A stretch of 54,877 nucleotides of DNA from Candidatus Gottesmanbacteria bacterium (GCA_016195685.1 JACPZE010000029.1:1-54877), one strand, 5' to 3'; positions 27,072 to 42,851 are shown, counted from the first letter of the stretch. The notes: generated by a model not told the origin, from the letters alone. Numbers and translations: made by a program.

Positions 27072-27100
27072 TTGAAATCCGGTCTTATTCATTGTATAAT
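27072..27100 (+). promoter_or_regulatory. Internal sigma70-type promoter upstream of rplC
   Basis: TTGAAA-17-TATAAT. Confidence 0.65.
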
Positions 27101-27170
27101 TTATATACAAATCATGGAGGTAAGAAGACTGTAAATTTTGTTTATTAACGGATTTTGGGAGAAAGATCAA

Positions 27171-27195
27171 AGCCCCTATCCGGGGCTATTTTTTT
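27171..27195 (+). terminator. Intrinsic terminator/attenuator-like hairpin immediately before rplC
   Basis: AGCCCC-TATCC-GGGGCT-A-T7, ending 6 nt before the ATG. Confidence 0.6.
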
Positions 27196-27201
27196 ATCTA
27201 G

Positions 27202-27861
27202 ATGATTACATCAATTTTAGGTACAAAAATCATTCAATCTCAGGCATTTACAACTGAGGGGAAAAGGATTCCAGTTACGAAAGTATTAGCTGGACCATGT
27301 TTAGTGGTTAACATAAAGACTAAAATAAATGATGGTTATGATGCCGTCCAGATTGGTCTTGGCCAAAGACGAATTATTACCGTCACTAAGCCACAATTAG
27401 GTAATCTCAAAAAAGCGGGGTTGGAAAAAAATCCACCCCGTTTTTTAAAGGAAATAAAAATCGAGAATGCAACAATGGACAATGAAACAATGGAAAAATT
27501 AAAACCAGGGACGGTTATTAATGTTAATGACGTATTAAAACCCGGTGACACAATTCAAGTTACGGGGATATCCAAGGGTAAAGGATTTCAAGGTGTTGTG
27601 AAGAGACATCATTTCCGAGGCGGACCCAGAACTCATGGACAATCGGATCGGGAACGTGCGCCGGGTTCCATAGGTTCCACTACTACCCCAGGGCGAGTTT
27701 ACAAAGGAAAAAGAATGGCTGGGAGGATGGGTAATGATCGTGTAACACTAAAAAATCTAAAAGTAGTATCAATAGATGCAGAGAAAAATATCTTGACAAT
27801 TTCAGGTTTAGTGCCGGGTGGTAGGAATGCTCTTTTGATTATAAAGAAGACGAGTTCTTAA
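27202..27861 (+). CDS. rplC: 50S ribosomal protein L3
   Basis: SKGKGFQGVVKR, PGRVYKGKRMAGRMG. Confidence 0.98.
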   Translation: MITSILGTKIIQSQAFTTEGKRIPVTKVLAGPCLVVNIKTKINDGYDAVQIGLGQRRIITVTKPQLGNLKKAGLEKNPPRFLKEIKIENATMDNETMEKLKPGTVINVNDVLKPGDTIQVTGISKGKGFQGVVKRHHFRGGPRTHGQSDRERAPGSIGSTTTPGRVYKGKRMAGRMGNDRVTLKNLKVVSIDAEKNILTISGLVPGGRNALLIIKKTSS

Positions 27862-27869
27862 ATTTAAAT

Positions 27870-27925
27870 ATGTTTACACTAAGCCCTTCGAAAACTCAGG
27901 GTAAACGCTGAAAGGAGCGAATGTG
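27870..27925 (+). repeat. Start-codon cassette copy 1 (rplD), 32-nt module plus a 21-nt nested inverted insert; mini-ORF MFTLSPSKTQGKR* at 27870-27911
   Basis: ATGTTTACACTAAGC...GCTGAAAGGAGCGAATGTG. Confidence 0.85.
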
Positions 27926-28750
27926 CCGAACAAAAAAACAATTAAAACAGAAAAAACTCAAGTAAGGCCTAAAACTGATCTCAAAACTGAAGTCTATAAT
28001 CTTTCCGGAGAAATTGTAGGTAAGTTGTCTCTTCCAGGAGAAATTTTTGCAGTGAAAGGCAGTAACCATCTTCTTGCTCAAGCTGTCAGAGTTTATCAAG
28101 CCAATAAAAGGTTAGGTACCCATGACAGTAAAACTAGATCAGAAGTGGTAGGTTCTACCCGTAAAATATACCGACAAAAAGGTACCGGTCGCGCAAGGCA
28201 TGGTAGTATCACTGCGCCTATATTTGTCGGGGGTGGAGTTGCACATGGTCCTCATCCCAGAGATTATTCCTTGACCTTACCCCAAAAAATGAAGAAAGCC
28301 GCACTTTTTGCAGTGTTATCTGATAAATTGCACAACGGATCGCTTAAAGTTGTCAGAGGTTTTGAAAAAATCGCATTGAAAACTAAAATAATGAATGAAA
28401 CTTTAAATAATTTAAAGTTTAATGAGGAAACAAAGAAAAAAGAAAATATTCTTCTGATCACGTCAGAAAATCTAAAAAACATAATTCTCTCTGGCAGGAA
28501 TATAGATAACTTAACTATTGAAAACGTAAAATTATTAAATACTTTGAAAGTCATTTCTCATAGGAATTTACTACTTATGGAAGAGGCGGTACCTGTATTA
28601 GCGAGTCATTTTCTTTCCCAGAATAAACAAAAACTTCTTTCCGGTATTTCAACCAAAAAAGAAAAAGTAGTAAAAAAATCAGCCTCAACTAAAAACAGAT
28701 CAGCCAAAAAAGAAATCAAGCCAACAAAAAAACTGAAAGCTAAAAAATAA
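27923..28750 (+). CDS. rplD: 50S ribosomal protein L4 (GTG start, Lys-rich tail)
   Basis: KTRSEV, QKGTGRARHG, GGGVAHGP. Confidence 0.97.
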   Translation: MPNKKTIKTEKTQVRPKTDLKTEVYNLSGEIVGKLSLPGEIFAVKGSNHLLAQAVRVYQANKRLGTHDSKTRSEVVGSTRKIYRQKGTGRARHGSITAPIFVGGGVAHGPHPRDYSLTLPQKMKKAALFAVLSDKLHNGSLKVVRGFEKIALKTKIMNETLNNLKFNEETKKKENILLITSENLKNIILSGRNIDNLTIENVKLLNTLKVISHRNLLLMEEAVPVLASHFLSQNKQKLLSGISTKKEKVVKKSASTKNRSAKKEIKPTKKLKAKK

Positions 28751-28752
28751 AT

Positions 28753-29052
28753 ATGATTATCGCAAACATTATTAGAAAACCTATCATTACAGAAAGATCT
28801 TTGATTGATGCTAGACTTGGAGTTTTTACATTTGAAGTGGATAAAAACGCCAATAAACACCAGATCAAAGAAAAAATAGAAAACCTTTTTAAAGTGCACG
28901 TAAAAAAAATCACCAGCGCAAATTTCAAAGGTAAAAAAAGATTAGTCGGTAAAAAAAGAACCCCTGTATATCAACCTGACAGGAAAAAAGTTTGGGTGAG
29001 GTTAGCAAAAGACGAGAAAATCGATTTATTTGAAGTAGGAGAGAAAAAATGA
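28753..29052 (+). CDS. rplW: 50S ribosomal protein L23
   Basis: PIITE, FEV...ANK.QIK, operon position. Confidence 0.95.
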   Translation: MIIANIIRKPIITERSLIDARLGVFTFEVDKNANKHQIKEKIENLFKVHVKKITSANFKGKKRLVGKKRTPVYQPDRKKVWVRLAKDEKIDLFEVGEKK

Positions 29053-29816
29053 ATACATCAACTTATTTCCACCCGGAAAAAACGTTGATGGCAATACTAC
29101 CGAAGAATTCAGGTAGGAATAATATTGGTCATGTAACAAGTAGGCATCAAGGCGGTAGAGAAAAACGTTACTATAGAGCTATTGATTTCAAAAGAAATAA
29201 ATATGATATTGTTGGTCGTGTAATTACATTTGAATATGATCCGAACAGAAATGTTGATATCTCGCTTATACATTATGCTGATGGAGAAAAAAGATATATT
29301 TTAAGACCAGTAGGACTTAATATTGGTGACAGTGTTTCTTCTGGAGAAAATGTTGAAGTGAAAGTGGGAAATAGTTTACCGCTTAGCCAGGTTCCGTTGG
29401 GCACGCCAATCCATAATCTGGAGTTATCCAAGGGTCGAGGAGCTCAAATAGTGCGTGGGGCAGGTACGATGGCTGTAGTGTTGTCGAAAGAAGGTAAATT
29501 CGCCCAAGTAAAATTGCCATCAGGAGAAGTCAGGAAAATTGATGTAGGTTGTCATGCTACTATCGGTCAGATCTCTAATCTAGATTGGAAGAATAAAAAT
29601 TTGGGTAAAGCCGGTAGATCAAGACATATGGGGATTAGGCCAAAAGTCCGAGGAACAGCCCAGAACCCGCGTTCTCATCCTCACGGTGGAGGAGAAGGTA
29701 GAAGCGGTGAAGGATTAAAACAAGCAAAAACTCCTTGGGGTAAACCGGCAAGAGGTTTAAAGACACGCAAGAAGAATAAATATAGTAATCGTTATATAGT
29801 ACAAAGGAGAAAATAA
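29049..29816 (+). CDS. rplB: 50S ribosomal protein L2 (N-terminally shortened)
   Basis: [30 protein letters not shown]. Confidence 0.97.
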
Positions 29817-29818
29817 AA

Positions 29819-30103
29819 ATGTCTAGATCTAGTAAAAAAGGACCATATATAGATAAAAGATTACTGAAAAAAGTTATAATCCAAAAAAATTCCGGTCAAA
29901 ATACGCCGATAAAAACATGGTCAAGAGCTTGCCAGATTCCGCCAGATTTTGTCGGTCACAAATTTGCAGTTTACAACGGTAAGAATTTTATCGAGGTATT
30001 TGTAAGCGAAGGTATGGTAGGACATAGACTTGGAGAATTCTCTCAAACAAGAACATTCCGAGGTCATGGTCAAGTGACTAAGAGAATTTTGGAAAAGACA
30101 TAA
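29819..30103 (+). CDS. rpsS: 30S ribosomal protein S19
   Basis: [25 protein letters not shown]. Confidence 0.98.
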
Positions 30104-30107
30104 TATT

Positions 30108-30142
30108 ATGTTTACACTGAACGAATTAAAGGAGTGAACGTG
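30108..30142 (+). repeat. Start-codon cassette copy 2 (rplV); mini-ORF MFTLNELKE* at 30108-30137
   Basis: ATGTTTACACTGAACGAATTAAAGGAGTGAACGTG. Confidence 0.85.
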
Positions 30143-30520
30143 GAAATTATTGCACAAATAAAATATTTGCACATCTCGCCTAAAAAAATGAAAGCTTTAG
30201 CGAGAATTGTCGTGGGTTTAAATCCTGCTGATGCAGTAGAAAAGTTGCTTTTGGGTAGCGGTAAGGGTACAAGATTACTGTTACAAGCTATAAAATCTGC
30301 ACAAGCTGACGCCCAAAATAATCTGAAACTTGATGTAGCAACCTTAACAATCAAATCAGTCTCTATTTTGAAAGGGCCAGCGATGAAGAGGTTTCAACCG
30401 GTTTCCAGAGGTATGGCCCATTCGATAAAAAAAAGGATGTCACATATCACAGTAGTGTTAACTCAAAAAGAAGCTAAGGTAGTAAAAAAATTAGAAGAAC
30501 CTAAAAAGGAGAACATTTAA
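30140..30520 (+). CDS. rplV: 50S ribosomal protein L22 (GTG start)
   Basis: ISPKK, SA.A.A.NN, GP.MKR..P..RG, KR.SHITV; GTG 30140 lies 5 nt after AAAGGAG. Confidence 0.96.
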   Translation: MEIIAQIKYLHISPKKMKALARIVVGLNPADAVEKLLLGSGKGTRLLLQAIKSAQADAQNNLKLDVATLTIKSVSILKGPAMKRFQPVSRGMAHSIKKRMSHITVVLTQKEAKVVKKLEEPKKENI

Positions 30521-30522
30521 TT

Positions 30523-31185
30523 ATGGGTAAGAAAATACATCCAAAAGGTTTTAGGCTCGGTCCATTATATACTTGGGATTCCCGCTGGTTTGCGGGTGGT
30601 CAACAATACAATCAATTTGTGATTGAAGATGCCAGGATTAGGCGATTACTTCTTCAGAAATTACAGCCTGCGGGAGTAGCAAAAGTTGAGATTGAGCGTT
30701 CGATAAATAAAATTAATATTACTTTACATGTGGTGAGACCTGGTATGGTTATCGGACGTGGGGGTCAGGGTATGGAGGAAATCAAAAAGTTCACTCAACA
30801 AGTTATCTTAAAACATAGAAAAACCTTTAAACAATTGGGTAAACAAGCTGCTTTTAAGTTAGATGTGAAAGTAGAACCGGTGAAAGATCCATATCTGAAT
30901 TCATACTTTTTGGCCAATCAAATTGCGGAGCAAATAGCAAAAAGACTTCCTCATAAAAGAGTAGTCCATTTTGCTCTTGAAAAAGTGATGACAGCTGGAG
31001 CAAAAGGCGTAAAAATTATTCTTTCCGGAAGGATAAATGGAGCTGAAATTTCACGTAGGGAAACTTACAAAATTGGGACAATACCACTATCAACTATCCG
31101 TGAAGATGTTGATTTTACGGCTGTGCCATCATTGACTAAATCAGGATATGTGGGTGTAAAAGTATGGATATGTCGTAAGAGTTAG
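30523..31185 (+). CDS. rpsC: 30S ribosomal protein S3
   Basis: MGKKIHPKGFRLG, RPGMVIGRGG, GRINGAEI, GVKVWI. Confidence 0.98.
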   Translation: MGKKIHPKGFRLGPLYTWDSRWFAGGQQYNQFVIEDARIRRLLLQKLQPAGVAKVEIERSINKINITLHVVRPGMVIGRGGQGMEEIKKFTQQVILKHRKTFKQLGKQAAFKLDVKVEPVKDPYLNSYFLANQIAEQIAKRLPHKRVVHFALEKVMTAGAKGVKIILSGRINGAEISRRETYKIGTIPLSTIREDVDFTAVPSLTKSGYVGVKVWICRKS

Positions 31186-31264
31186 TTTGTTAATTAGTTA
31201 CTTGGTTACTTAGTAGATATTAATAATTTTTCTAAGTAACAAATAACAAAGTAACTAAGTAACT
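31182..31264. repeat. AT-rich 8-mer tandem/inverted repeat (TTAGTTAC / GTAACTAA)
   Basis: Left arm TTAGTTTGTTAATTAGTTACTTGGTTACTTAG; right arm CTAAGTAACAAATAACAAAGTAACTAAGTAACT. Confidence 0.8.
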
Positions 31265-31270
31265 TTAATT

Positions 31271-31675
31271 ATGTTAGTACCAAAAAGAGCAAAATACAGA
31301 AAACAATTTAGAGGCACCATGGGTGGAGTTGCCAGTCGCGGAACGCAGGTCAATTTCGGAGAATATGGGCTGAAGGCTTTTGAGTCAGGTTGGGTTTCTT
31401 CCCGTCAGATAGAATCTGCGAGAAAAGTGATGACTCGTTTTACGGCCAAAGGAGGTCGTGTTTGGATTCGAATATTTCCTGATAAACCGGTATCAGATAA
31501 ACCTCCGGAAGTCAGAATGGGTGGAGGAAAAGGGGATGTAGTAGATTATGTAGCAGTGATAAAACCCGGCAGAATTCTTTTTGAAATGGGAGGTTTAGAA
31601 GAATCATTGGCCCGTGAAGCCTTGGAGTCGGCTGCCAGCAAATTACCTATTCAGGCTAAATTTGTAAAAAGATAA
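31271..31675 (+). CDS. rplP: 50S ribosomal protein L16
   Basis: [31 protein letters not shown]. Confidence 0.98.
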
Positions 31676-31706
31676 ATATATTTATAACGGTTAGTTAAAA
31701 AATAAT

Positions 31707-31913
31707 ATGAAAAAGAGTCAAATTAAAGAATTAAATGCGAAAACAGAAGCAGAATTAAACAAAATGCTTTCTAGCCAAAAAGAAGACTTGGCTAAAATAA
31801 TGATTGAGCTGCAGTCTAAAAAGTTGAAAAATGTTGCTTTAGTGACCAACAAGAAAAAAATGATTGCAGTAATTTCAACAAAACTTACTGAAAAGGAGTT
31901 AGCAAAAGTATGA
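31707..31913 (+). CDS. rpmC: 50S ribosomal protein L29
   Basis: Size, position between rplP and rpsQ, EL...L / KK.IA...T pattern. Confidence 0.9.
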   Translation: MKKSQIKELNAKTEAELNKMLSSQKEDLAKIMIELQSKKLKNVALVTNKKKMIAVISTKLTEKELAKV

Positions 31914-32137
31914 AAAATATAATTGGAAAAATAGTCTCAACCAAGATGATGAAAACTATAGTAGTAGAAGTGGCAAGACAAAGAGTCCACCCTCTTTACA
32001 AGAAAATCATGAGAAGAACGGCACGGATTAAAGTACATAACGAGGATGAGACATTAAAAGTTGGCGATATGGTTAAGATTACCTCAACGAGACCATTATC
32101 AAAGACTAAACATTTTAAAGTGACAGGAAAAATATGA
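31910..32137 (+). CDS. rpsQ: 30S ribosomal protein S17
   Basis: [21 protein letters not shown]. Confidence 0.97.
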
Positions 32138-32508
32138 TTCAACTGCGTTCTATTTTAGACGTTGCAGATAATACCGGAGCACATAGACTATCAGTGATCC
32201 AGGTAATGGGTCACGGAAACCGTAAAATTGCTTATATAGGAGACATTATAAATTGCGTTGTCAAAAAAGCAGATGCGGAGGGAATGGTAAAAACAAGTGA
32301 AAAGGTAAAGGCAGTACTTGTGCGAACCAGAAAAGAAAAAAGAAGAACAGACGGGTCTTATATAAGATTTGATGATAATGCAGCTGTAATTATAGATAAC
32401 CAAAAAGATAAAAATCCAAAAGGGACAAGAATTTTCGGGCCAATTGCCCGTGAGCTTAAAGATCTGGGTTTTGCCAAAATTGTATCTATGGCGCAGGAGG
32501 TATATTGA
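32134..32508 (+). CDS. rplN: 50S ribosomal protein L14
   Basis: [26 protein letters not shown]. Confidence 0.98.
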
Positions 32509-32509
32509 T

Positions 32510-32815
32510 ATGAAACTATTAAAAGGTGACGAAGTTATTATTACGACAGGAAAAGATAAAGGTAAAAAAGGCAAAATAGAAAAGATTTTACATAAGCAGG
32601 GTAAAATTGTCCTGCCGGGATTAAATATATACAAGAGGCATCTGAAAAAAAGAGATGAGAAAAACCCGGGAGGAATAGTAGAGTTTAGTAGACCAGTTCC
32701 GGTTGGGAATGTCGCTATTATATGTCCTAAATGCGCAAAACCAACAAGGATAGGTTACAAATTAACAGGAGATAAAAAAGTACGCATTTGCCGAAAATGC
32801 AAAGCGACGCTATAA
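32510..32815 (+). CDS. rplX: 50S ribosomal protein L24
   Basis: KGDEV...GKDKGK.G KOW motif; start moved to ATG 32510, which follows GGAGG. Confidence 0.96.
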   Translation: MKLLKGDEVIITTGKDKGKKGKIEKILHKQGKIVLPGLNIYKRHLKKRDEKNPGGIVEFSRPVPVGNVAIICPKCAKPTRIGYKLTGDKKVRICRKCKATL

Positions 32816-32819
32816 TCCT

Positions 32820-33389
32820 ATGTCACAACTATTTCAACAATACCAAACAGAGATAAAGAAAAAATTAGCAGAAGAATTAAACATCAAAAATGTCATGGCT
32901 ATTCCGAAACTTACGAAGGTTGTATTAAACTGTAGTTTAGGTGAAGCGCTGGAGAATAAAAAAGTAATCGAAGAAGTGACGAGTGAGTTTACCCAGATAG
33001 CCGGACAAAAACCAGTAATTACTCATGCCAAGCATGATATTTCTGCCTTCAAGCTAAGAAGAGGTGACGCAATTGGGATAAAAGTGACACTAAGAGGACA
33101 AAGGATGTATGATTTTGTTGAAAAGTTAGTGAAAATTGTACTTCCGAGAATTCGCGATTTCCGAGGAGTACCCAGTTCTGGTTTTGCCGGTTTCGGAGAT
33201 TACAGTTTGGGATTATCTGAGCAGATTGTATTTCCAGAAATAGAGTACAGCAAAGTAAGCAAGGTTAGAGGTCTACAAATAACTTTTGTGACGACAGGGA
33301 AAAATAAAGAGCAAACGAGTAAATTATTAGTGGCATTAGGGATGCCCTTCACTAAAGCTCAGGGTAAACCGTCTGTTATTAAAAATTAA
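32820..33389 (+). CDS. rplE: 50S ribosomal protein L5
   Basis: IAGQKP, FKLR.G, VTLRG, LPRIRDFRG, LGMPF plus a C-terminal extension. Confidence 0.98.
   Translation: MSQLFQQYQTEIKKKLAEELNIKNVMAIPKLTKVVLNCSLGEALENKKVIEEVTSEFTQIAGQKPVITHAKHDISAFKLRRGDAIGIKVTLRGQRMYDFVEKLVKIVLPRIRDFRGVPSSGFAGFGDYSLGLSEQIVFPEIEYSKVSKVRGLQITFVTTGKNKEQTSKLLVALGMPFTKAQGKPSVIKN
33345..33369 (-). repeat. Reverse-orientation relative of the cassette inside the rplE 3' end
   Basis: CCCTTCACTAAAGCTCAGGGTAAAC (reverse complement GTTTACCCTGAGCTTTAGTGAAGGG), similar to CCCTTCGAAAACTCAGGGTAAAC at 27884-27906. Confidence 0.7.
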
Positions 33390-33425
33390 TATTTGTCCTG
33401 AGCGAGTGAAAGGAATAAAAGTATG
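33389..33425 (+). repeat. Degenerate start-codon cassette copy (rpsN)
   Basis: ATATTTGTCCTGAGCGAGTGAAAGGAATAAAAGTATG aligns without gaps to the 32-nt module (ATG to ATA, GTG to GTA). Confidence 0.65.
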
Positions 33426-33608
33426 GCAAAAGTATCTGACATAATTAAATTCAGGAAAAAACAAAAATTTAAAGTTCGAGCAAGAAATCGCTGTCAACTC
33501 TGTGGTAGAGCTAGAGGTTACATGAGAAAATTTGCACTGTGTAGACTTTGTTTTAGAGAAATGGCACATAGAGGAGAATTGCCAGGAGTTGTAAAAGCTT
33601 CTTGGTAA
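33423..33608 (+). CDS. rpsN: 30S ribosomal protein S14, Zn-binding type Z
   Basis: 61 aa, RCQLCGR...[16 protein letters not shown]. Confidence 0.97.
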
Positions 33609-33643
33609 ATAAGAAACTTATATTATTAATTAATAAATAAAAT

Positions 33644-34039
33644 ATGCTAACAGATCCAATATCAGACTTATTGATCCAGATAAAAAATGGGTATATGGCC
33701 CGGAAAAAAAATGTTGTTGTAACACACAGTAATATAAAAAATGAGATTGCGCACCTTTTATCCAAAGAAGGATATGTCGGAAAAGTTGAAGTAAAAAATG
33801 TTGGAAAGGTGAAAAAAAATATCTCAATAGATCTTGTTTACATAGGTAAAGAACCGAGATTAACCGATGTGGTCAGAGTAAGTAAAATTGCAAGAAGAAT
33901 CTATGCAAAGAAAGGCACAATACCCAGAGTTTTAAGCGGCTTAGGTATGACAATTCTTTCCACATCAAGCGGTCTTATGACAGGTAAAGAAGCAAGGAAA
34001 AAGGGACTTGGTGGAGAGATAGTCTGTAAAGTTTGGTAA
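33644..34039 (+). CDS. rpsH: 30S ribosomal protein S8
   Basis: DPISDLL..IKN, STSSGLMT..EAR..GLGGE. Confidence 0.98.
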   Translation: MLTDPISDLLIQIKNGYMARKKNVVVTHSNIKNEIAHLLSKEGYVGKVEVKNVGKVKKNISIDLVYIGKEPRLTDVVRVSKIARRIYAKKGTIPRVLSGLGMTILSTSSGLMTGKEARKKGLGGEIVCKVW

Positions 34040-34043
34040 AAAT

Positions 34044-34079
34044 ATGTTTACACTGAGCGACAGAAAGGAGCGAATGTGA
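34044..34079 (+). repeat. Start-codon cassette copy 3 (rplF); mini-ORF MFTLSDRKERM* whose stop overlaps the GTG start (GTGA)
   Basis: ATGTTTACACTGAGCGACAGAAAGGAGCGAATGTGA. Confidence 0.85.
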
Positions 34080-34630
34080 CACGAATTGGAAGAAAACCGA
34101 TATCATTTGAAAACGATGTAAAAATTTCCCAAAATATGGGGATAATTTACGTGGAGGGACCTGTTGGAAAAATGGAACTTCCTGTACCATCCGAGATGGA
34201 AGTGAAAATCTCAGGAAATACTATAGAAATTGCAGAAAAAAACGGCGTTACCGCCAGAAACATTCAGGGTTTATTTCGCAGTTTATTACAAAATGCCGTA
34301 ACAGGAGTAAAGACTCAATGGAATAAAACTTTGGAATTAGTAGGAGTAGGATACAGAGCACAAACAAGCGGAACAGAATTAGAATTGAATTTAGGGTTTT
34401 CACATCCTATCAAAATGAAAGCACCAATGGGAATCACTTTTAAGGTTGTTGAAAATAAGATTATAGTCAGCGGGGCGGATAAATACATGGTAGGAGAAGT
34501 ATCTGCCATAATTCGGAAGTTAAAGCCGCCTGAACCTTATAAAGGTAAGGGTATTCGTTATGATAAAGAGTTTATTAGAAAGAAACTTGGTAAAGCTGCC
34601 AAAGCAGTAGGAGCTACCGGTGCTAAATAA
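34076..34630 (+). CDS. rplF: 50S ribosomal protein L6 (GTG start)
   Basis: RIGRKPI, GVGYRA, LGFSHP, PEPYKGKGIRY. Confidence 0.98.
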   Translation: MTRIGRKPISFENDVKISQNMGIIYVEGPVGKMELPVPSEMEVKISGNTIEIAEKNGVTARNIQGLFRSLLQNAVTGVKTQWNKTLELVGVGYRAQTSGTELELNLGFSHPIKMKAPMGITFKVVENKIIVSGADKYMVGEVSAIIRKLKPPEPYKGKGIRYDKEFIRKKLGKAAKAVGATGAK

Positions 34631-34632
34631 AT

Positions 34633-34992
34633 ATGAAAAACTCAAAAGCAAAAGGAAGAATTAAAAGAAGTATAAGGATCAGGGCAAAAATCGCCGGGTC
34701 AAAAGACAGACCCAGACTTTGCGTTTTTAGGTCAAGCCGCTATATATACGCTCAGATAATAGATGATGTAAGCGGTAAAACTCTAGTAGCTGCAAGTGAA
34801 AAAGAACTCAACATCAAAAAAGGCGAGAAAATTAAAAAGATTGAAAAGGCAAAATTAGTCGGTCAACTGCTGGTTAAAAAAGCCGTCAAAGCGAAAGTTG
34901 CAGCTGTGGTTTTTGACCGTAACGGTTATAAATATCATGGCAGAGTTAAATCTCTTGCAGAAGGTGTAAGGGAAGGAGGCTTAAAATTTTAA
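34633..34992 (+). CDS. rplR: 50S ribosomal protein L18
   Basis: RPRL.VFRS, VFDRNGYKYHGRV, GGLKF. Confidence 0.98.
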   Translation: MKNSKAKGRIKRSIRIRAKIAGSKDRPRLCVFRSSRYIYAQIIDDVSGKTLVAASEKELNIKKGEKIKKIEKAKLVGQLLVKKAVKAKVAAVVFDRNGYKYHGRVKSLAEGVREGGLKF

Positions 34993-34994
34993 TT

Positions 34995-35429
34995 ATGAAT
35001 GATGAATTTAATGAAAAAGTAATTCAAGTCAACCGGGTATCGAAAAAAACAACCGGAGGAAATAAGATTGGTTTTTCGGTTCTTATAGTTGTAGGCGACA
35101 AAAAAGGTAGGGTGGGAGTAGGTTTGGGCAAAGCAGCAGATGTTGCTTCTGCCGTGAGGAAAGGCTCTGCTTATGCCAGAAAACATATGATCACGGTTCC
35201 AATGGTAAAAACAACTATTCCGCACGAAATTAGGATAAAAATGGGAGCAGCCAAGATACTCCTGAAGCCAGCTCCGGCAGGTACTGGTATCCGTGCTGGT
35301 GGTGCGGTAAGGGCTGTAGTTGAAGCTGCAGGAATTCGCGATATCGTATCAAAAATATTAGGAACTGACAACAAAGCCTCAAATGTATACGCAACATTTG
35401 CAGCTTTAAGTAAACTCAAAACACTATGA
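34995..35429 (+). CDS. rpsE: 30S ribosomal protein S5
   Basis: RVSK...GG, VVGD..G.VG.G.GKA, PA..GTG..AGG. Confidence 0.98.
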   Translation: MNDEFNEKVIQVNRVSKKTTGGNKIGFSVLIVVGDKKGRVGVGLGKAADVASAVRKGSAYARKHMITVPMVKTTIPHEIRIKMGAAKILLKPAPAGTGIRAGGAVRAVVEAAGIRDIVSKILGTDNKASNVYATFAALSKLKTL

Positions 35430-35881
35430 TAAATCTAAATAAACTTCCCAAAACCACAACAAGAGGAAAAAAGAGATTAGGTCAAGGACATGGAAGCGGG
35501 CGAGGTAAGACCGCCGGACGAGGTACCAAGGGTCAAAAAGCCAGAGGAAAAATGTCTCTTACCTTTAATGCGTCCGGATTATCGTTGATCAGGCGTCTTC
35601 CTCTTATCCGTGGAAAATACCGCAATAAACAACATAAAAATCGGGCATTAGTAGTAAATGTAAAATACCTTAACTTATTACCTGCAAATTCTACTGTCGA
35701 TATAGCTACTTTGATAGCTCATCATATAGTTGACAAAGGAGAAGTATTACTTTCCGGAGTGAAAATTTTAAGCAACGGAGATTTGAAAATTCCATTGATT
35801 GTAAAATTGCCATGTTCTAAAAAGGCACAGAAAAAAATAGAAGCCGCTGGGGGAAAATGTGTTACAGAAAAAAGTAAATGA
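35426..35881 (+). CDS. rplO: 50S ribosomal protein L15
   Basis: [31 protein letters not shown]; directly follows rpsE (no rpmD). Confidence 0.97.
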
Positions 35882-37167
35882 ATAAATTTCTAAGTCCGAT
35901 AATCAACGCCTTTAAGACAAAAGAGCTAAGAAGAAAAATTCTCTTTACTGCACTTATATTTTTGATTTTCCGCATTTTTGCTCATATTCCCATACCCGGT
36001 GTCAATCTTTTGAAGCTAAAAAACCTTTTTTCCCAGAGTGAATTTTTGGGACTATTGGATATTTTTTCCGGCGGAACACTGGTAAATTTTTCTGTTATGG
36101 CGACAGGACTTAATCCATACATTAACGCATCTATTATTTTGCAACTTTTGACAATGGTATTCCCCAAATTGGAGGAACTTTCCAAGGAAGGAGAATTCGG
36201 TCGCGAGAAAATAAACCAATATACCAGACTTTTGGCAGTACCTTTGGCTGCAATTCAGTCATTGGGTATGTATGCATTACTGAAAAGCCAGGGAATTATA
36301 GCGATACAGTCGCCATTAACTCTTCTGTCTATGATACTGACGATGACTACGGGAACGATACTCTTGATGTGGTTAGGTGAGCTAATTTCAGAATTTGGCG
36401 TCGGAAACGGAATTTCACTTTTGATTTTTGCGGGTATAGTGGGAAGACTTCCAGTAGTAGCAACGCAGACCATTTCTATAGTAACCGGGGAACTTTTGGT
36501 AAATGCGATCGTATTTTTAGCCTTGGCTTTTTTGGTGATAGCAGGAATTGTGCTTATCAATGAGGCAGTTCGGCAGGTACCAGTCCATTATGCAAAAAGA
36601 ATAAGGGGAAATAAAATTTATGGTGGTTCGACTACGTATCTTCCACTTAGATTAAACCAGGCAGGAGTTATCCCCATCATATTTGCTGTTTCTATCGTGT
36701 TGCTTCCATCATTGGTTGGGCGGTTTGTATCGCTTATACCGAACAAAGTTTTGGCAAATATCGCCTCCGGAATGGTTTCTATTTTTAACACAAACGGGGT
36801 CTTTTATAATATTATTTACTTTATTTTAGTGATAGGATTCACTTATTTTTACACAGCTATTACTTTTAATCCGCAAAAAATCGCCGGAGAAATACAAAAA
36901 TACGGAGGATTTATTCCAGGTATAAGACCAGGTACCCCAACAGCAAATTATCTAAATTACATCCTTACCCGGATCACTTTGGCGGGAGCAATTTTTTTGG
37001 GAGTAGTCGCAATTCTTCCGGCAATACTGAAACAAGTCACCGGTATTGCATCGCTGACGATCGGTGGAACTAGTATTTTGATCGTTGTTTCTGTAGTTTT
37101 GGAAACCGTAAAAAGCTTCGAAGCACAATTACTTATGAGAAATTACGAAGGATTCCTTAAAAGTTAA
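35878..37167 (+). CDS. secY: Preprotein translocase subunit SecY
   Basis: 10 [38 protein letters not shown]. Confidence 0.98.
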
Positions 37168-37236
37168 TTAGTTAATTAGTTAATTAGTTACTTAGAAAAT
37201 ATAAATACTAATTCACCAACTAACAAATTAACTAAG
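37162..37236. repeat. AT-rich 8-mer tandem/inverted repeat
   Basis: (AGTTAATT)x3 AGTTACTTAG ... CTAATTCACCAACTAACAAATTAACTAAG. Confidence 0.8.
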
Positions 37237-37245
37237 AACCTATCT

Positions 37246-37827
37246 ATGCATCTTGTATTTTACGGACCGGAAGGGTCAGGAAAAGGTACACAGGCAAAAC
37301 TTTTATCAGAAAAACTCAAATTGCCTATTTATACAACCGGAGATTTAGTCCGAGAAGCAGCGGCAAATGATAAGACTGATGTTGGAAATCTTTGCAGGAA
37401 GGTTTTAGAAGAGGGTAAATATTTGCCAGATGTTGTTGTAAGTCAACTTATAGCAAACAAGGTAACAGGAAGTTCAGCAGTCAACGGTTTTATTCTTGAT
37501 GGATTTCCCAGAACAAAAGGTCAGGCAGAATTTTTAGATAAGACCGTAGAAAAATCAGGTTTTAAAATAGACAAATTTATATACCTAAATCTTTCAGATG
37601 AAGAATCAGTAAAAAGGCTTTCCAAAAGGAAAAGAGTATTATTTGGGGGTAGTAATATTCTTCACGATGATCCAAAAAGGGTAAGACAAAGATTGGCAGT
37701 TTATCACAAAAATGAAAAAGATGTTATAGATTTTTATACGAAAAAAAATTTGATATTAGAGGTAAACGCTGGACAAACAGTGGAAAAGGTATTTAGGGAC
37801 ATTGTTTTAGGATTAAAACTTGCATAA
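37246..37827 (+). CDS. adk: Adenylate kinase (short LID)
   Basis: GPEGSGKGTQA, TGDLVR, GFILDGFPRT; secY-adk-map order. Confidence 0.93.
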   Translation: MHLVFYGPEGSGKGTQAKLLSEKLKLPIYTTGDLVREAAANDKTDVGNLCRKVLEEGKYLPDVVVSQLIANKVTGSSAVNGFILDGFPRTKGQAEFLDKTVEKSGFKIDKFIYLNLSDEESVKRLSKRKRVLFGGSNILHDDPKRVRQRLAVYHKNEKDVIDFYTKKNLILEVNAGQTVEKVFRDIVLGLKLA

Positions 37828-37828
37828 T

Positions 37829-38590
37829 ATGGTAGATCTTAAAACTCCAGAGGAAATTTCGCTAATGCGAAAAGGGGGAGAAATTTTACACAAAATACTG
37901 CTGAAACTATTGGATGATGCTAGGGTTGGAGTACGTCTAAAAGATTTAGATCAGACAGCAGAAAATTTGATCTTCTCGGCAGGAGGAAAACCTTCCTTTC
38001 AAATGGTACCAGGATATAAATGGACAATATGCGCTTGCGTGAATGACGTAGTAGTGCATGGAATACCGGATGAATACATTTTACAGGAGGGGGATCTGCT
38101 TGGTATAGATTGCGGAATATACCTTGATGGTTTTCATACCGATCATGCTTGGTCAAAGATCGTTACGAATGGTAAACAGAGCGATTACAAAGAGAAAACA
38201 AATTTTTTAGACACAGGAGAGAAAGCATTTACAGAGGCAATCAAACAGGCACAACCAGGAAATTATATCTATGATATTTCAAAAGCAATTCAGGATAATA
38301 TTGAAGCGGATGGTTACTCTGTAGTAAGAAGCCTAGTTGGGCATGGCGTCGGCAGAAAACTGCATGAGGATCCAGAAGTACCGGGTTTCACAAAAGGCAA
38401 AAGACAAAGCTCTCTTAAAATTATCCCGGGTATGGTATTAGCTACCGAAGTGATTTATAATTTAGGTTCTGCCGATGTGGTTTATAAAGGAAATGACGGA
38501 TGGACAATTGCCACAAAAGATGGTAAAATATCTGGACTTTTTGAAGCAACCGTGGCGATAACATCCCGCGGAGGTTTTGTTTTGACTTAA
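37829..38590 (+). CDS. map: Methionine aminopeptidase type I
   Basis: VVHGIP, DCG, TD.A, GHGVG..LHEDP; start moved to ATG 37829. Confidence 0.95.
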
Positions 38591-38596
38591 TCCCTC

Positions 38597-38651
38597 TCCG
38601 CCAGCTGGCGGATTCGGAATTAATTCGACTAACGTCCCGCCTGGCGGGACG
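38597..38651. repeat. Two tandem CCGCC/GGCGG palindromes (REP-like)
   Basis: TCCGCCAGCTGGCGGA (38597-38612) and CGTCCCGCC-T-GGCGGGACG (38633-38651). Confidence 0.7.
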
Positions 38652-38666
38652 AGTCTCATTGAAATT

Positions 38667-38885
38667 ATGGCTCATCAGGGAACGACAGAAATTGTTGGAC
38701 ATGTTACAGAGGCTTTACCAAATACTATGTTTCGCGTGAAACTGCCTAATGGTAAGATAATACTTTGCCATTTAGCCGGCAGGATGCGGATACACTACAT
38801 AAGGATTATGCCAGGCGATCAGGTCAGGTTGGAATTAACTCCATATGATGATACAAAAGGTAGGATAGTTTATAGAATGAAGTAA
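38667..38885 (+). CDS. infA: Translation initiation factor IF-1
   Basis: [15 protein letters not shown]...IRI.PGD.V, PYD.TKGRI.YR. Confidence 0.98.
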
Positions 38886-38887
38886 TT

Positions 38888-39001
38888 ATGAAAGTTCATG
38901 CATCAGTAAAACCAAGATGTCAAAAATGTAAAAGCGTTCTTCGTCGTGGGAAAATTTATATAGTTTGTGACAATCCGAAACATAAACAAAGACAAGGATA
39001 A
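38888..39001 (+). CDS. rpmJ: 50S ribosomal protein L36 (not in the ORF track)
   Basis: Translates as [37 protein letters not shown]. Confidence 0.97.
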
Positions 39002-39004
39002 AAT

Positions 39005-39424
39005 ATGGCTAGAATTTCAGGAATAGATTTACCAGATCATAAAAGACTAGATATAGCGTTAACCTATATTTATGGAATAGGAAGAAAAAATGCTGTAGTA
39101 ATTCTGAGAGAAGCTTCTGTTCTCGGTTCCAAGAGAATTAAGGAATTGTCTGAAGAAGAAGTAGGAAAGATACAAAAAGTGATTGAAGAAAAATTTAAAA
39201 TCGAGGGAGATTTAAAGACCGAAATTGTAGGAAATATAAAAAGATTAAAAGAAATAGGTAGTTATAGAGGCCTTCGTCATATAAAAGGACTCCCGGTAAA
39301 CGGACAAAGGACTCGTTCAAATGCTAGAACAAAAAGAGGTAAACGAAAGACTGTAGGAGCGCTTAGAAAAGAAGTAAGGGCTCAACTTGATTCGACAAAA
39401 ACAACCGATAAAGCAGCCGCTTAA
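39005..39424 (+). CDS. rpsM: 30S ribosomal protein S13
   Basis: MARISGID, IYGIG, YRGLRH..GLPV.GQRTRSNART. Confidence 0.98.
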   Translation: MARISGIDLPDHKRLDIALTYIYGIGRKNAVVILREASVLGSKRIKELSEEEVGKIQKVIEEKFKIEGDLKTEIVGNIKRLKEIGSYRGLRHIKGLPVNGQRTRSNARTKRGKRKTVGALRKEVRAQLDSTKTTDKAAA

Positions 39425-39431
39425 AATTATT

Positions 39432-39803
39432 ATGCGTAATAAACAATCAAAAGTTGTAGAAAGAGGCCGCATCTATATAGCCGCGACATTTAACAATACC
39501 TTAATCACGGTGACCGATGAAAAAGGAAACACATTAGGGTGGGGATCTGCCGGTAACGTAGGGTTTAAAGGTACAAGAAAATCTACACCTTTCGCTGCTA
39601 CCACTGCCGTTGATCAAGTGATGAAAAAAGTCATCGCCGCAACCGGACTTCGAAGTGTAGAAGTTTACATGAAGGGACCAGGTGCCGGTAGAGACGCAGC
39701 ACTAAGAGCTCTAAAAAGTGCCGGACTTTCCGTAACTATGATAGCAGATATTACTCCTATGCCACATAATGGCGTAAGGCCAAAAAAGAAAAGAAGGGTA
39801 TAA
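39432..39803 (+). CDS. rpsK: 30S ribosomal protein S11
   Basis: ATFNNT, GFKG.RKSTPFAA, GPGAGR, TP.PHNG.RP; start moved to ATG 39432. Confidence 0.98.
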   Translation: MRNKQSKVVERGRIYIAATFNNTLITVTDEKGNTLGWGSAGNVGFKGTRKSTPFAATTAVDQVMKKVIAATGLRSVEVYMKGPGAGRDAALRALKSAGLSVTMIADITPMPHNGVRPKKKRRV

Positions 39804-39806
39804 AAT

Positions 39807-40427
39807 ATGGCAAGATACACTGGACCCAAAAACAGACTAGCACGAAGAGAAGGAGCTGATTTAGGTTTAAAAACAACTGGTATGTCAGCTCATTCTTCGC
39901 TCCTTCGAAGGATGAAAATTCCTCCGGGACAGCATGGACAAAAAGGGACCAGAAAAATTTCTGACTACGGAAAACAGTTGCGGGAAAAACAAAAAGTTAA
40001 AAGGATTTATGGACTTTTAGAAAAACAATTCAGAAACTATTTTGAAAAGGCGAGTCGGAATCCTGCTAACACAGGAGAAGTATTTCTGACTTTGCTTGAG
40101 AGGAGACTTGATAATGTAGTTTATAGATTGGGTATGGCACCAACTAGAGCTTCGGCGCGACAATTTGTAAGTCATGGACATATCCAAGTAGACGGGAAGA
40201 GAGTAAATATCCCCTCGTTTCAAACAAGTGAAGGCATGGTTGTGTCTCCGAAACAAAAACTTTTAGAGACACCTCTATTGAAAAAATTAATGGAAGATAA
40301 AGACTTACCACTGCCAGATTGGCTCAAAAGACAAGGGCCGGTAGGTAAAATATTGCGTCTCCCAAAAAGAGAAGATATTCTTGACGATATAGCAGAGCAG
40401 CTTATTATTGAGTTTTATTCACGTTAA
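39807..40427 (+). CDS. rpsD: 30S ribosomal protein S4
   Basis: [35 protein letters not shown]. Confidence 0.98.
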
Positions 40428-40454
40428 TTAATTATTTTAAGGAGGTATAAATTT

Positions 40455-41369
40455 ATGATCGAACCTAATTTTACAGTCAAAGCCGAAACTGACAAGCCAG
40501 ATTATGGCAAATTTATTATAGAACCTTTGGATTTTGGTTATGGTCATACTCTGGGAAATAGTCTAAGAAGAGTTCTGCTTACATCCTTAAAAGGTGTTGC
40601 AGTTACTCAAGTAAAAATTGATGGAGTGAAGCATCAATTTTCTACATTACCTGGTTTGAAAGAAGATATAGTCCAGCTTATTTTAAATATCAAAAAGATC
40701 AGATTTACTCTGGATGGGGATAAGCCAGTGATTATGAGATTAAATGCCAAAGGTCCCAAAAAATTGGTCGCTGGAGATTTGGAAGGTGAAGCAGAGGTAA
40801 TTAATAAAGATATTTACCTTGGAGAATTAACTAACAATAAAGCAAAAATTTCTATGGAGGTTACAGTTGAGGGAGGATACGGATATGTCACGGCAGAAGA
40901 ATTCGAAGGTAAAAAAGAGTTAGGTTCGATCATTGTTGATGCTCTTTTTTCTCCCATATCACGTGTGAATTATAAAGTAGAAGCTACTCGTGTGGGAAGG
41001 ATGACAAATCTGGATAAGCTTATATTGGAAGTGTGGGGAGACGGTAGTATTTCTCCTCTTGATGCGCTTAAAACTACATCGAAAATTTTGGTATCCTATT
41101 TCCTGCAGATTTACGAACCGAAGGCAAAACCTACAGAAGGAGTAGCGCTTACACCTACACTTTCTGAGGAAATTCTCAAAATGACATTGGAAGAGCTAGA
41201 TCTACCTACTAGAATAGTAAACGCTCTACACAACGGAGGAGTAGATACGGTAGGACAATTGCTAGGTACACCCAAAAAAGAGCTCTATAAAATAAAAAAC
41301 TTGGGTGCAAAATCCATCACCACAATTGAAGAAGTTTTAAGAGAAAAGGGTATTGCCTTAACTGTATAA
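40455..41369 (+). CDS. rpoA: RNA polymerase alpha subunit
   Basis: GYGHTLGNSLRRVLL, DALFSP, alpha-CTD NLG.KS; SD AAGGAGG. Confidence 0.98.
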   Translation: MIEPNFTVKAETDKPDYGKFIIEPLDFGYGHTLGNSLRRVLLTSLKGVAVTQVKIDGVKHQFSTLPGLKEDIVQLILNIKKIRFTLDGDKPVIMRLNAKGPKKLVAGDLEGEAEVINKDIYLGELTNNKAKISMEVTVEGGYGYVTAEEFEGKKELGSIIVDALFSPISRVNYKVEATRVGRMTNLDKLILEVWGDGSISPLDALKTTSKILVSYFLQIYEPKAKPTEGVALTPTLSEEILKMTLEELDLPTRIVNALHNGGVDTVGQLLGTPKKELYKIKNLGAKSITTIEEVLREKGIALTV

Positions 41370-41375
41370 AATATT

Positions 41376-41846
41376 ATGCGACACCAAGTATTTGGTAAGA
41401 AATTAAATCGCGATGTCAAAGAAAGAAAAGCATTATTTAGAAGCCTTATATGGGCTCTAATATCTTATGGTAAAATCAAGACTTCAATAGCTAAAGCAAA
41501 AGCCATACAACGTTTGGCAGATAAGTTGGTGACAAAAGCTAAAGACGGTTCTGATAATGCGATTAGGCAAGTTTCTGCATTTCTGACAAAGAAAGACGTC
41601 ATAAATAAGCTTACAAAAGAGATTGCCCCCAGATTTGCCAAGATATCAGGGGGATATCTTCGTTTAAGAAGAATCGGGAAAAGGTCGGGTGATGATGCAG
41701 AAGAAGTAGTTTTGGAGTGGAGTGTCCCAGAAGAAAAAAAGACAGAGGTAAAACCTGTAAAAGCAGAAGCATCAAAATCTGAATTAAAGAAAATAGAAAA
41801 AAAGGTGCAAAAAAAGACAAAAACGTCGACCAAAGGACGAAAATAA
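41376..41846 (+). CDS. rplQ: 50S ribosomal protein L17
   Basis: MRH, R.AL.R.L, GGYLR, R.GD.A; Lys-rich tail. Confidence 0.96.
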   Translation: MRHQVFGKKLNRDVKERKALFRSLIWALISYGKIKTSIAKAKAIQRLADKLVTKAKDGSDNAIRQVSAFLTKKDVINKLTKEIAPRFAKISGGYLRLRRIGKRSGDDAEEVVLEWSVPEEKKTEVKPVKAEASKSELKKIEKKVQKKTKTSTKGRK

Positions 41847-41849
41847 ATT

Positions 41850-41884
41850 ATGTTTACACTGAGGGAGAGAAAGGAATGAATGTG
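41850..41884 (+). repeat. Start-codon cassette copy 4 (rplM); mini-ORF MFTLRERKE* at 41850-41879
   Basis: ATGTTTACACTGAGGGAGAGAAAGGAATGAATGTG. Confidence 0.85.
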
Positions 41885-42307
41885 CAAATGACTACATCTA
41901 CAAAACTTAAGGATATAAAAAGAAAATGGCACTTGGTAGACGTGCAAGGGAAAATACTTGGTAGAGTAGCAAGCAGTATTTCCCAACTTTTGATAGGAAA
42001 AAGCAAACCCTACTTTGTATCTTATCTTGATTGCGGAGATTACGTAGTTGTCGTGAATTCATCAAAAGTAAAAGTAACAGGTAAAAAAGGAGAACAGAAA
42101 ATGTACATGAGATATTCAGGCTTTCCGGGAGGATTAAAAGCCAAATCGTTTGATCAGGTGCAAAAAGAAGATCCTATCAGGATTATAGTCGAAGCAGTGT
42201 CGGGAATGCTTCCGCAAAATAAACTGCGGGCCTCGATGCTCAAAAGACTATTTGCTTTCACTGACGAAGAACATCCTTATAAAGAAAAACTAAATCAATC
42301 TAGTTGA
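41882..42307 (+). CDS. rplM: 50S ribosomal protein L13 (GTG 41882 by cassette homology; in-frame ATG 41876 is the alternative)
   Basis: W..VD....LGR.AS, DCGDYVVV.N, SG.PGG, GMLP. Confidence 0.96.
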   Translation: MQMTTSTKLKDIKRKWHLVDVQGKILGRVASSISQLLIGKSKPYFVSYLDCGDYVVVVNSSKVKVTGKKGEQKMYMRYSGFPGGLKAKSFDQVQKEDPIRIIVEAVSGMLPQNKLRASMLKRLFAFTDEEHPYKEKLNQSS

Positions 42308-42347
42308 TAATTGTTAACCAGTCCTCCACTAAAAACCATATTTAAAT

Positions 42348-42851
42348 ATGCCAAAAACTAAAAAACAAGAAACAGAAAAAAAAGTAGAAAAAGTTACGCT
42401 AAAGAAAGAAACAAAGAAACATACTTACTACGAAGCGGTAGGCCGAAGGAAAGAAGCCACCGCCAATGTACGTCTTTATGTGATTTCCGAAGGCGAATTG
42501 GCGATGGGCGGGTATAATGTAAAGAAGGGAGATATCCTTGTCAATAAGCGACCGATAGAGAAATATTTTGCTGGAGAAGTATTTAAGAAAATTTACAGCG
42601 AGCCTTTTCGGGTTACCAATACCGTTGGCCGTTTTGCAGTAACTGCCGTCACAGTAGGAGGCGGACCAAACGGACAAGTAGGTGCTTTTGTACATGCAGT
42701 ATCCAGAGCTTTGGAGAAAGTGGATAAAGATAAATTTAGGGTGATTTTAAAAAAGAGCGGTTTTCTGACAAGAGATTCAAGAATGAAAGAAAGACGCAAA
42801 GCAGGTTTTGCCCAAAAGGCCAGAGCAAGAAAACAATCCCCGAAGAGATAA
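42348..42851 (+). CDS. rpsI: 30S ribosomal protein S9
   Basis: GRRKEA.A.V, GGG..GQ..A, LTRDSR.KER.K.G..KAR...Q..KR. Confidence 0.97.
   Translation: MPKTKKQETEKKVEKVTLKKETKKHTYYEAVGRRKEATANVRLYVISEGELAMGGYNVKKGDILVNKRPIEKYFAGEVFKKIYSEPFRVTNTVGRFAVTAVTVGGGPNGQVGAFVHAVSRALEKVDKDKFRVILKKSGFLTRDSRMKERRKAGFAQKARARKQSPKR

Follow-up and report, generated by a model that had tools for sequence, protein, structure and literature searches.

A dispersed repeat cassette at ribosomal protein gene starts in Candidatus Gottesmanbacteria, probably supplying the Shine-Dalgarno sequence and start codon

What has placed the same short sequence at the starts of four ribosomal protein (r-protein) genes, and given these genes GTG start codons, is the question raised by a 54,877-nt stretch of a Candidatus Gottesmanbacteria genome (GCA_016195685.1, JACPZE010000029.1:1-54877; hereafter the window, to which all coordinates without a contig label refer). 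The genes are rplD, rplV, rplF and rplM, and the sequence, here called the cassette, begins with ATG and ends in the GTG of the gene that follows. A preliminary description of the window had offered two readings: a small element that became inserted at the start codon and now gives a Shine-Dalgarno (SD) sequence plus GTG, or a deliberate control module for specific r-proteins. By sequence comparison, the cassettes are insertions with in-frame junctions, dispersed to unrelated genes and genera and found both nested and in tandem. The explanation that we regard as probable is a dispersed repeat, resembling repetitive extragenic palindromes (REPs) and MITEs (transposable elements of the miniature, inverted-repeat type), that settles at start codons and has come to act as the SD and start codon of the gene.

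The source genome (G000), from an uncultivated groundwater bacterium, comprises 1.19 Mb and is 93% complete. Comparisons drew on a class sample of 301 genomes and on a family of 21 genomes, 13 of which were taken into the tree; G012 and G001 are two other genera of this family. Gene calls are our own open reading frame (ORF) readings.

Cassettes at four GTG starts in the window

The 13-mer ATGTTTACACTRA occurs exactly four times in the window, at 27870, 30108, 34044 and 41850, heading the four copies originally reported. With up to two mismatches it has 11 matches in the window, against 3.95 +/- 2.07 in 100 shuffles, none of which reached 11; the other seven matches all need two mismatches. 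All four cassettes run into AAAGGA(G/A)(C/T)GAA(T/C)GTG, where GTG is the start of rplD, rplV, rplF or rplM. The distance from the 5′ ATG to this GTG was confirmed as 53 nt at rplD and 32 nt at each of rplV, rplF and rplM, and the 5′ ATG lies 8, 4, 4 and 3 nt, respectively, after the upstream stop codon, in agreement with the range of 3–8 nt given earlier.

Cassette 1 (27870..27925, plus strand, 56 nt; GTG start at 27923-27925) consists of ATGTTTACACTAAG, a nested hairpin unit in reverse orientation and GCTGAAAGGAGCGAAT. The nested unit (27884..27906, minus strand, GTTTA-CCCTGAG-tttt-CGAAGGG) is complete and accounts for the extra length of this copy (21-23 nt, previously expressed as ‘32+21’). 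Cassettes 2 (30108..30142; GTG start at 30140-30142) and 3 (34044..34078; GTG start at 34076-34078), both on the plus strand and 35 nt long, carry the SD sequence AAAGGAG. Cassette 4 (41850..41884, plus strand, 35 nt; GTG at 41882-41884) has AAAGGAA, and for rplM an in-frame ATG at 41876 and another ATG at 41888 are alternative possible starts. The 35-nt form can be parsed as GTTTA-CACTGAG-cgac-AGAAAGG followed by AGCGAAT and then GTG, which is able to pair with CAC.

Read as an initiation signal, the 3′ end of the cassette offers GGAG, a 5-nt spacer and an in-frame GTG, the sequence arrangement of an SD-led start site, and SD pairing is available because the 3′ end of the 16S rRNA of G000 carries CACCTCCTTTC, the canonical anti-SD. 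N-termini read from the terminal GTG are canonical for L22 (EIIAQIKYL), L6 (TRIGRKPI) and L13 and extended for L4, and those read from the cassette GTG align with relatives from residue 1-3. GTG starts are indeed restricted to the four cassette genes, all of the other 27 genes of the cluster beginning with ATG. The further claim that most neighbours lack an SD is borne out in 16 of these 27, which have no SD-like 4-mer, but the remaining 11 do have one. In each of the four genes, translation most likely begins with the SD and GTG that the element carries.

A degenerate fifth copy had been placed at 33389. It is a real repeat, but of a sister type: a TCCT-type unit (33390..33425, plus strand), TATTTG-TCCTGAG-cgag-TGAAAGGA (33390-33414; hairpin TCCTGAG-cgag-TGAAAGGA at 33396-33414), separated by 8 nt from the ATG of rpsN at 33423. 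AAAGGA lies 8 nt before this ATG, and both the 5′ ATG and the GTG of the cassettes are missing.

Cassette DNA was also found in contigs of four independent groundwater DNA runs from one study, with no differences and no 32-nt skip; contigs lose rare variants, and this agreement is therefore uninformative on mobility.

Cassette-free junctions in related genomes

The S10-spc-alpha region was fetched from 12 family relatives, all outside the source genus. At rpsS|rplV, 10 of the 12 have a stop codon, 0-26 nt and ATG, while G012 carries a 61-nt cassette and G020 a different unit of the repeat family. The rpsH|rplF junction is short and empty in 8 of 11 relatives; in two others a spacer of ~100 nt holds no cassette, and in G012 the junction is filled by a tandem cassette whose last codon is ATG. 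No cassette was found at rplC|rplD in the 11 readable relative junctions or at rplQ|rplM in nine relatives. The reverse case is seen at rpmJ, where G012 has a cassette and the window is empty (TAATT|ATGAAAGTT). Filled and empty junctions differ by exactly the cassette, with codon 2 onward unchanged. The empty site had been predicted to be TATG-like, and the orthologous junctions do read stop, a few nucleotides, then ATG and the gene. These empty junctions, together with recurrence at unrelated genes, nesting and tandem copies described below, support the earlier proposal of an element inserted at the start codon and now giving SD and GTG.

In relatives other than G012 the rpsN junction has a TATAAT-like hexamer and no unit. 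An empty site outside the operon was sought among orthologues of the endonuclease III-like gene on contig C27 of G000, and no clean comparison was obtained because these orthologues differ in their N-termini and neighbours. Other spacer changes were seen at the same junctions: in G012 (L037) a different repeat, CGCAATGACAG, is present twice before rplD, and in G008 (L041) part of the 3′ end of rpsH is duplicated within the ~95-nt rpsH|rplF spacer.

Occurrence within and beyond the source genome

A covariance model built from nine simple cassettes gave nine matches in G000 at E<=1, six of them start-codon cassettes. Besides the window copies at rplD, rplV, rplF and rplM, these are a match on C27 before the endonuclease III-like gene, preceded by a degenerate tandem copy, and one on C32 before an HMA/P-type ATPase gene. 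Two further matches on C9 adjoin tRNA-Asn and an att-like partial duplicate of tRNA-Asn, and the last, on C20, is a CCCT-type unit ahead of a gene start. The 11-mer ATGTTTACACT occurs seven times in G000, and all seven family copies are preceded by ATG. The genome-wide scan suggested earlier has returned a handful of copies in place of hundreds at random positions, the picture proposed for an ordinary REP, which is inapplicable here. The element is rare, and four of the six start-codon cassettes fall in the 16-kb r-protein cluster.

The C9 region (C9:13340-14940) contains tRNA-Asn on the minus strand, then a CACT hairpin. Upstream lie three att-like partial duplicates (..TTCGACTCCAAAATGTTTACA..CGAAGTGCTCCCCC) with 0.5-0.9 kb segments carrying small ORFs between them, and the region has the look of small integrated elements arrayed in tandem. 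tRNA genes at C13:1980, C13:10332, C27:3580 and C8:24146 are trailed by a hairpin, CACCGAA-AAAATC..GATTTT-TTCGGTG, then TAAACA; these hairpins have TGTTTACAC in common with the cassette on the opposite strand.

In G012, 18 exact 13-mers were identified, as well as 29 cassette 3′ ends (none of these in controls), with more than 20 cassettes before unrelated genes. An ORF from the terminal RTG follows every one of the 25 non-redundant cassettes catalogued from G000, G012 and G001. Products of the downstream genes include r-proteins L4, L22, L6, L13, L36, S6 and S18, but also non-ribosomal proteins: GltX, dihydroorotate dehydrogenase, dehydroquinate synthase, a Fic protein, nucleotidyltransferases, the endonuclease III-like protein and the HMA P-type ATPase. 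The rplD cassette of G000 matches a G012 cassette at an unrelated gene in 55 of 56 positions and the G000 rplF cassette matches that of G012 rpsR in 34 of 35; between these genomes the concatenated operon proteins share only 70% identity. Composite cassettes recur as wholes, and tandem copies are joined as ...GAAT|ATGTTTAC...

The cassette pattern was found in three of the 301 class genomes (G000, G012 and G001, all in the family), with no matches in controls. On the 13-genome tree G000 is sister to (G012, G008) and G001 to G016, and since G008 and G016 are without the cassette its presence needs at least three changes. In a species-level genome collection the strict pattern was found in contigs of one other metagenome-assembled genome, labelled Candidatus Gottesmanbacteria. 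Seven metagenome contigs carry it, all at ORF starts: rplF (three, two of them identical), rplR, a phosphoglycerate-kinase-like gene, a membrane protein gene and a pilin-like gene. No viral contig with the pattern was found.

The parent hairpin family

The cassette belongs to a larger family of hairpin units, with the forms YCCTGAG-loop-CGAAGGR and CACTGAG-loop-CGAA(T)GTG. Each unit has a 5′ tail, (G)TTTA or GCTTG (ATGTTTA was also seen), a 4-bp stem of CCCT/AGGG, TCCT/AGGA (YCCT/AGGR) or CACT/AGTG, a tandem G.A/A.G mismatch and a closing G-C pair (sometimes A-T or G-T), with a loop of 3 to >20 nt that is itself a perfect stem-loop in some copies. About 35 units were found in G000, in both orientations and also inside coding sequence. 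Stem changes in this genome are compensated: CCC or TCC is combined with GGx in 17 of 19 units, and CAC, TAC or CAT with GTG in 9 of 10. For about a third of units a gene start lies within 13 nt downstream, typically as CGAAGGGAGGTGAATATATG, such that the purine-rich 3′ arm doubles as an SD. Forward and reverse units are paired inside cassettes (27870-27925; locus L023) and at C32:26796-26826.

The pattern TTTAYCCTGAG-N3-20-CGAAGG is present in 132 of the 301 class genomes and in most listed families, with no control matches; G012 has 39 copies and G000 nine. Units in class genomes lie before genes, after genes or abutting the 5′ or 3′ ends of tRNAs. Rfam gave no relevant match in window positions 25000-44000 at E<=5, and only tRNA for 13 unit-bearing loci at E<=1. 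Judged by this distribution, the parent hairpin unit is old and widespread and the cassette is a lineage-restricted derivative subfamily.

Some units have been incorporated into genes. A reverse CCCT-type unit at the 3′ end of rplE (33345..33370, minus strand) encodes the C-terminal tail of L5, ...PFTKAQGKP; the last ~15 codons (..PFTKAQGKPSVIKN, then stop) derive from it, the repeat having turned into coding sequence. G012 has the same arrangement with a loop 12 nt longer, and L5 of other relatives stops soon after MPF. At the nrdR start (C3:2598-2640 in G000; loci L124, L127 and L135) a hairpin unit is present in G000, G015, G012 (two in tandem) and G001 (two), and was not found in other relatives matched by pattern. 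Its 3′ arm is the gene's own ATGAAGTG and ATGAAG(T) is duplicated upstream, which hints at short homology or duplication at the target. A leader common to L009 (G003), L078 (G018) and L184 (G255), from two families, combines a TATAGT-like hexamer, a CACT-type hairpin and a 13-19-codon ORF starting MRQYKK, followed in G018 by a response-regulator-like gene.

A second dispersed repeat lies in the window between rpsC and rplP (31186-31266), consisting of inverted arrays of AGTAAC-N1-3-AGTAAC, of which the genome has 12, against one in the reversed control. Many contigs of the four DNA runs break or diverge at 31180-31303.

Mode of insertion

Under the dispersed-repeat explanation, the 3′ arm CGAAGGG-AG of the parent unit has become AGAAAGG-AG in the cassette subfamily, yielding a free SD, then a 5-nt spacer, then a GTG that can pair with the 5′-arm CAC. 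Copies were added exactly at start codons, with a net gain of 32 nt, or 32 nt plus nested units, and the second codon of the gene is fused in frame to the element's GTG, presumably the start actually used. Spread may have been by copy- or cut-and-paste, possibly through a single-strand reaction of the Y1-transposase type that inserts 3′ of ATG and excises precisely, and survival at start codons could be due to these being the only sites where a 32-nt insertion leaves the gene expressible. The short ORF opened by the 5′ ATG may hand coupled or leaderless-initiating ribosomes to the new start.

Single-strand transposition of the Y1 type (IS200/IS605) proceeds by insertion 3′ of a short fixed sequence, without target duplication, and involves a subterminal hairpin and seamless excision; such excision of the cassette would bring back a normal ATG start like that of sister genomes. 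Three features of the cassette would fit it: the constant ATG before all family copies in G000, the lack of a duplication and what looks like a seamless absence from sister genomes. Genes resembling Y1 (HUH) transposases are common in cassette-rich relatives, with 14 matches in G012; other relatives have 3-10. The 14 Y1_Tnp matches of G012 (L079-L091) are mostly diverged genes of ~215-235 aa resembling REP-associated tyrosine transposases (RAYTs), each with a short palindrome of its own on either side (e.g. CACCTCCGAGGTG or CACCTCTAAGGTG), and this 1-Mb genome holds several coexisting REP-RAYT-like systems. A CACT hairpin near Y1 matches in G018 and G255 was considered and rejected as a link, since it precedes the 13-19-codon MRQYKK... 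ORF and no transposase. No parent insertion sequence (IS) was found.

Several observations weigh against this account. Y1_Tnp (PF01797) has no match in G000, at its 93% completeness; palindromes flanking the RAYT/IS200-like genes of G012 (nine flanks read, four more loci scanned) differ from the units; and no flanking units were present at any of 30 Y1 loci in five unit-rich genomes. Clear terminal inverted repeats were not found in the cassette, nor was any target duplication beyond RTG, other than ATGAAG(T) at nrdR. That the 5′ ATG is the retained old start codon, as first proposed, is unproven because the same ATG heads tRNA-adjacent copies, and one metagenome copy begins with CTG instead. 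The number of independent insertions is uncertain, as the rplV and rplF cassettes shared by G000 and G012, and those at rplF in metagenome organisms, could be vertical. Cassettes are also enriched at r-protein genes (four of six in G000, five of 18 listed G012 ORFs, namely L22, L6, L36, S6 and S18, and four of seven metagenome contigs), which points to selection or function and not to purely selfish spread. Finally, the predicted folding energies of the 35-nt cassettes are only -0.8 to -6.8 kcal/mol, the 56-nt form reaching -11.6, and z-scores lie between -2.0 and +0.8; the two double changes in the cassette hairpin (CAT...ATG at G012 rplF; GAA...TGAA at G000 rplV) were matched by 42-52 of 500 shuffles, a modest covariation on nine simple cassettes.

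With these weak energies and non-significant z-scores, strong RNA structure was dropped as an explanation. Over the nine simple cassettes, 97.8% of cells fit the pairing of the CAC...GTG hairpin, and an alternative terminal pairing, AUGUUUAC/GYGAAYGU, is without covariation: ATGTTTAC and G(T/C)GAA(C/T)GT are paired in 87.5% of cells with none. The hairpin is well supported for the whole family and only modestly for the cassette.

A bolder form of the dispersed-repeat explanation, which we put forward tentatively, would make the cassette a start-codon-seeking mini-element, moving or recently moved, that inserts precisely at ATG starts and avoids being purged because it brings a portable SD, spacer and stem-paired GTG. 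It would turn SD-less, coupled or leaderless genes, preferentially those for r-proteins, into SD-led GTG genes, and might be read by a dedicated factor recognising the class-wide tandem-G.A hairpin.

Regulation, short reading frames and transcription signals as alternatives

The alternative that survives best, though we consider it unlikely, is a host regulatory operator: a trans-acting protein or RNA would bind the hairpin and co-regulate translation of an r-protein-rich set of genes, with selection keeping an element that may first have spread as a repeat. Near-invariance of a 35-nt sequence between genera with ~70% identical proteins speaks for it, as do a G.A/A.G mismatch never changed to Watson-Crick pairs, the retention of the unit across the class and the enrichment of cassettes at r-protein and translation genes. 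In every case, too, an initiation signal falls within the 3′ arm or overlaps it, namely the SD for CCCT-type units (CGAAGGGAGGTGAATATATG), GTG for cassettes and the nrdR ATG for nrdR units. However, the downstream genes have no common function, the cassette is at different genes in different genera, units occur in both orientations and within coding sequence, no candidate binding factor was found and predicted stability is weak. A deliberate control module for specific r-proteins, in the form originally stated, is not supported, given the diverse functions of the downstream genes and the weak predicted structure. The r-protein enrichment in G000, G012 and metagenome contigs means that the element may still have a regulatory or selective role.

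A relay or leader-peptide upstream ORF seems improbable. Here the 5′ ATG would open a short ORF (MFTL...), translated by coupling to the upstream gene or from a leaderless 5′ AUG, and ribosomes would depend on it to reach GTG, or a signal would be sensed through it. At rplD this out-of-frame ORF (27870..27911, plus strand) encodes MFTLSPSKTQGKR, then a stop codon; equivalents on the plus strand are at 30108-30137, 34044-34079, where the stop overlaps GTG as ATGTGA, and 41850-41879. The position of the ATG, 3-8 nt past the upstream stop, agrees with such a role, as does a short ORF that ends 2 nt before GTG or overlaps it in three of the four window copies and 11 of 25 cassettes overall. The frame offset reported as common to all copies does hold in the window, at 53 and 32 nt, but it is not strict over the 25 cassettes, which divide 16, 6 and 3 by ATG-to-GTG distance modulo 3. 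Several cassettes stop after 6-13 codons and others read far into the gene, the same ATG is found on non-coding tRNA-adjacent copies (CTG on one other), and peptides past MFTL vary with nested modules, MFTL itself being invariant because the DNA is invariant. These observations speak against a strict frame rule or a conserved leader peptide.

Equally doubtful is an RNA processing or transcription signal, in which the hairpin would mark a 5′ end (transcription start, promoter element or nuclease site) and a new transcript end would lie before the gene. In three relatives (L013, L015 and L098) the 5′ end of a mature tRNA follows directly on a unit, but other units are antisense to the tRNA next to them. 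Of 27 cassettes, 13 have a -10-like hexamer that ends 5-8 nt upstream of the ATG, compared with 20.6% of random ATGs, which favours this alternative and the upstream ORF alike and suggests that outside operons the element is often at the first base of the transcript, possibly on formerly leaderless genes. Operon cassettes, on the other hand, sit 3-8 nt after a stop codon with no promoter, and an internal promoter was rejected, no sigma-70-like site being found at any window cassette (33 sites found, 43.8 expected).

Chance or convergent SD regions, or an assembly artefact, have only the AT-rich background in their favour and can safely be discarded in view of the exact 13-mers, near-identities over 35-56 nt, the lack of control matches in 301 genomes and the unchanged cassettes in contigs of four independent runs.

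Relation to known elements and significance

With the dispersed-repeat explanation as the preferred one, the nearest relatives are to be sought among small mobile or repeated elements. IS200/IS605 elements and hairpin-only palindrome-associated transposable elements (PATEs), taken here as a possible working analogy, have in common with the cassette a fixed short sequence before copies (here ATG) and no duplication, but the cassette has one hairpin in 32 nt, no linked TnpA and one copy after CTG. MITEs such as the Correia elements of Neisseria, and the Rickettsia palindromic elements, are comparable as small non-autonomous repeats tolerated because genes keep working, and the reverse unit encoding the L5 tail (33345-33370) recalls the latter. 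Correia and Rickettsia palindromic elements measure ~100-150 bp, have long terminal inverted repeats and create duplications, of TA or otherwise; the cassette, in contrast, is without clear terminal inverted repeats, target duplication beyond RTG or a related autonomous IS. We know of no MITE or Rickettsia palindromic element that replaces a start codon and brings an SD and start codon of its own. Translational operators such as that of the MS2/R17 coat protein, and autoregulatory sites of r-proteins, resemble the cassette in that a hairpin holds the initiation codon, with the SD in or near the loop, and in that cassettes lie in r-protein operons; known operators, however, are gene-specific, whereas the cassette is one repeated sequence at many genes, with low predicted stability. 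Integron attC sites, CRISPR repeats, hammerheads and K-turns were considered and dropped, their defining cores not fitting the sequence.

REPs are typically extragenic and lie 3′ of genes. The units resemble REPs and their inverted doublets (REPINs) as short (20-40 nt), imperfect, hairpin-forming palindromes with a conserved 5′ tail and a conserved stem mismatch, dispersed in either orientation and also arranged as inverted doublets; in addition, related genomes often contain Y1-transposase-like genes. They differ in that cassettes lie at start codons with an SD and start codon, in low copy number (six cassettes and ~35 units in G000), and in that no cognate unit-flanked RAYT was found among the Y1 loci inspected in G012 and five unit-rich genomes, G000 having no PF01797 match. 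The two described REP super-families have a conserved GTAG or CGTC tag at one end (PMC3733652; also PMC3337134 for REP properties), in contrast to the unit tail GTTTA, GCTTG or ATGTTTA. Pneumococcal BOX elements are able to provide a start codon, but not together with a good SD (PMC3049150). A search of article full texts returned no paper on such an element in Microgenomates or other members of the candidate phyla radiation (CPR). Within the theme of small dispersed repeats, the cassette stands out by its start-codon position and its self-contained initiation signals.

Small dispersed repeats are usually viewed as intergenic passengers; here a repeat sits on the start codon, the three most sensitive bases, of essential genes, whose initiation signals are thereby exchanged but not lost. 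The parent hairpin, present in 132 of 301 class genomes and without an Rfam family, is by itself an uncharacterised conserved nucleic-acid motif. If confirmed, the proposed origin of the cassette would mean that a repeat can rewrite start codons (ATG to GTG) and SD usage in bulk, which would bear on gene-start annotation in the CPR and provide a handle on translation initiation in unculturable organisms.

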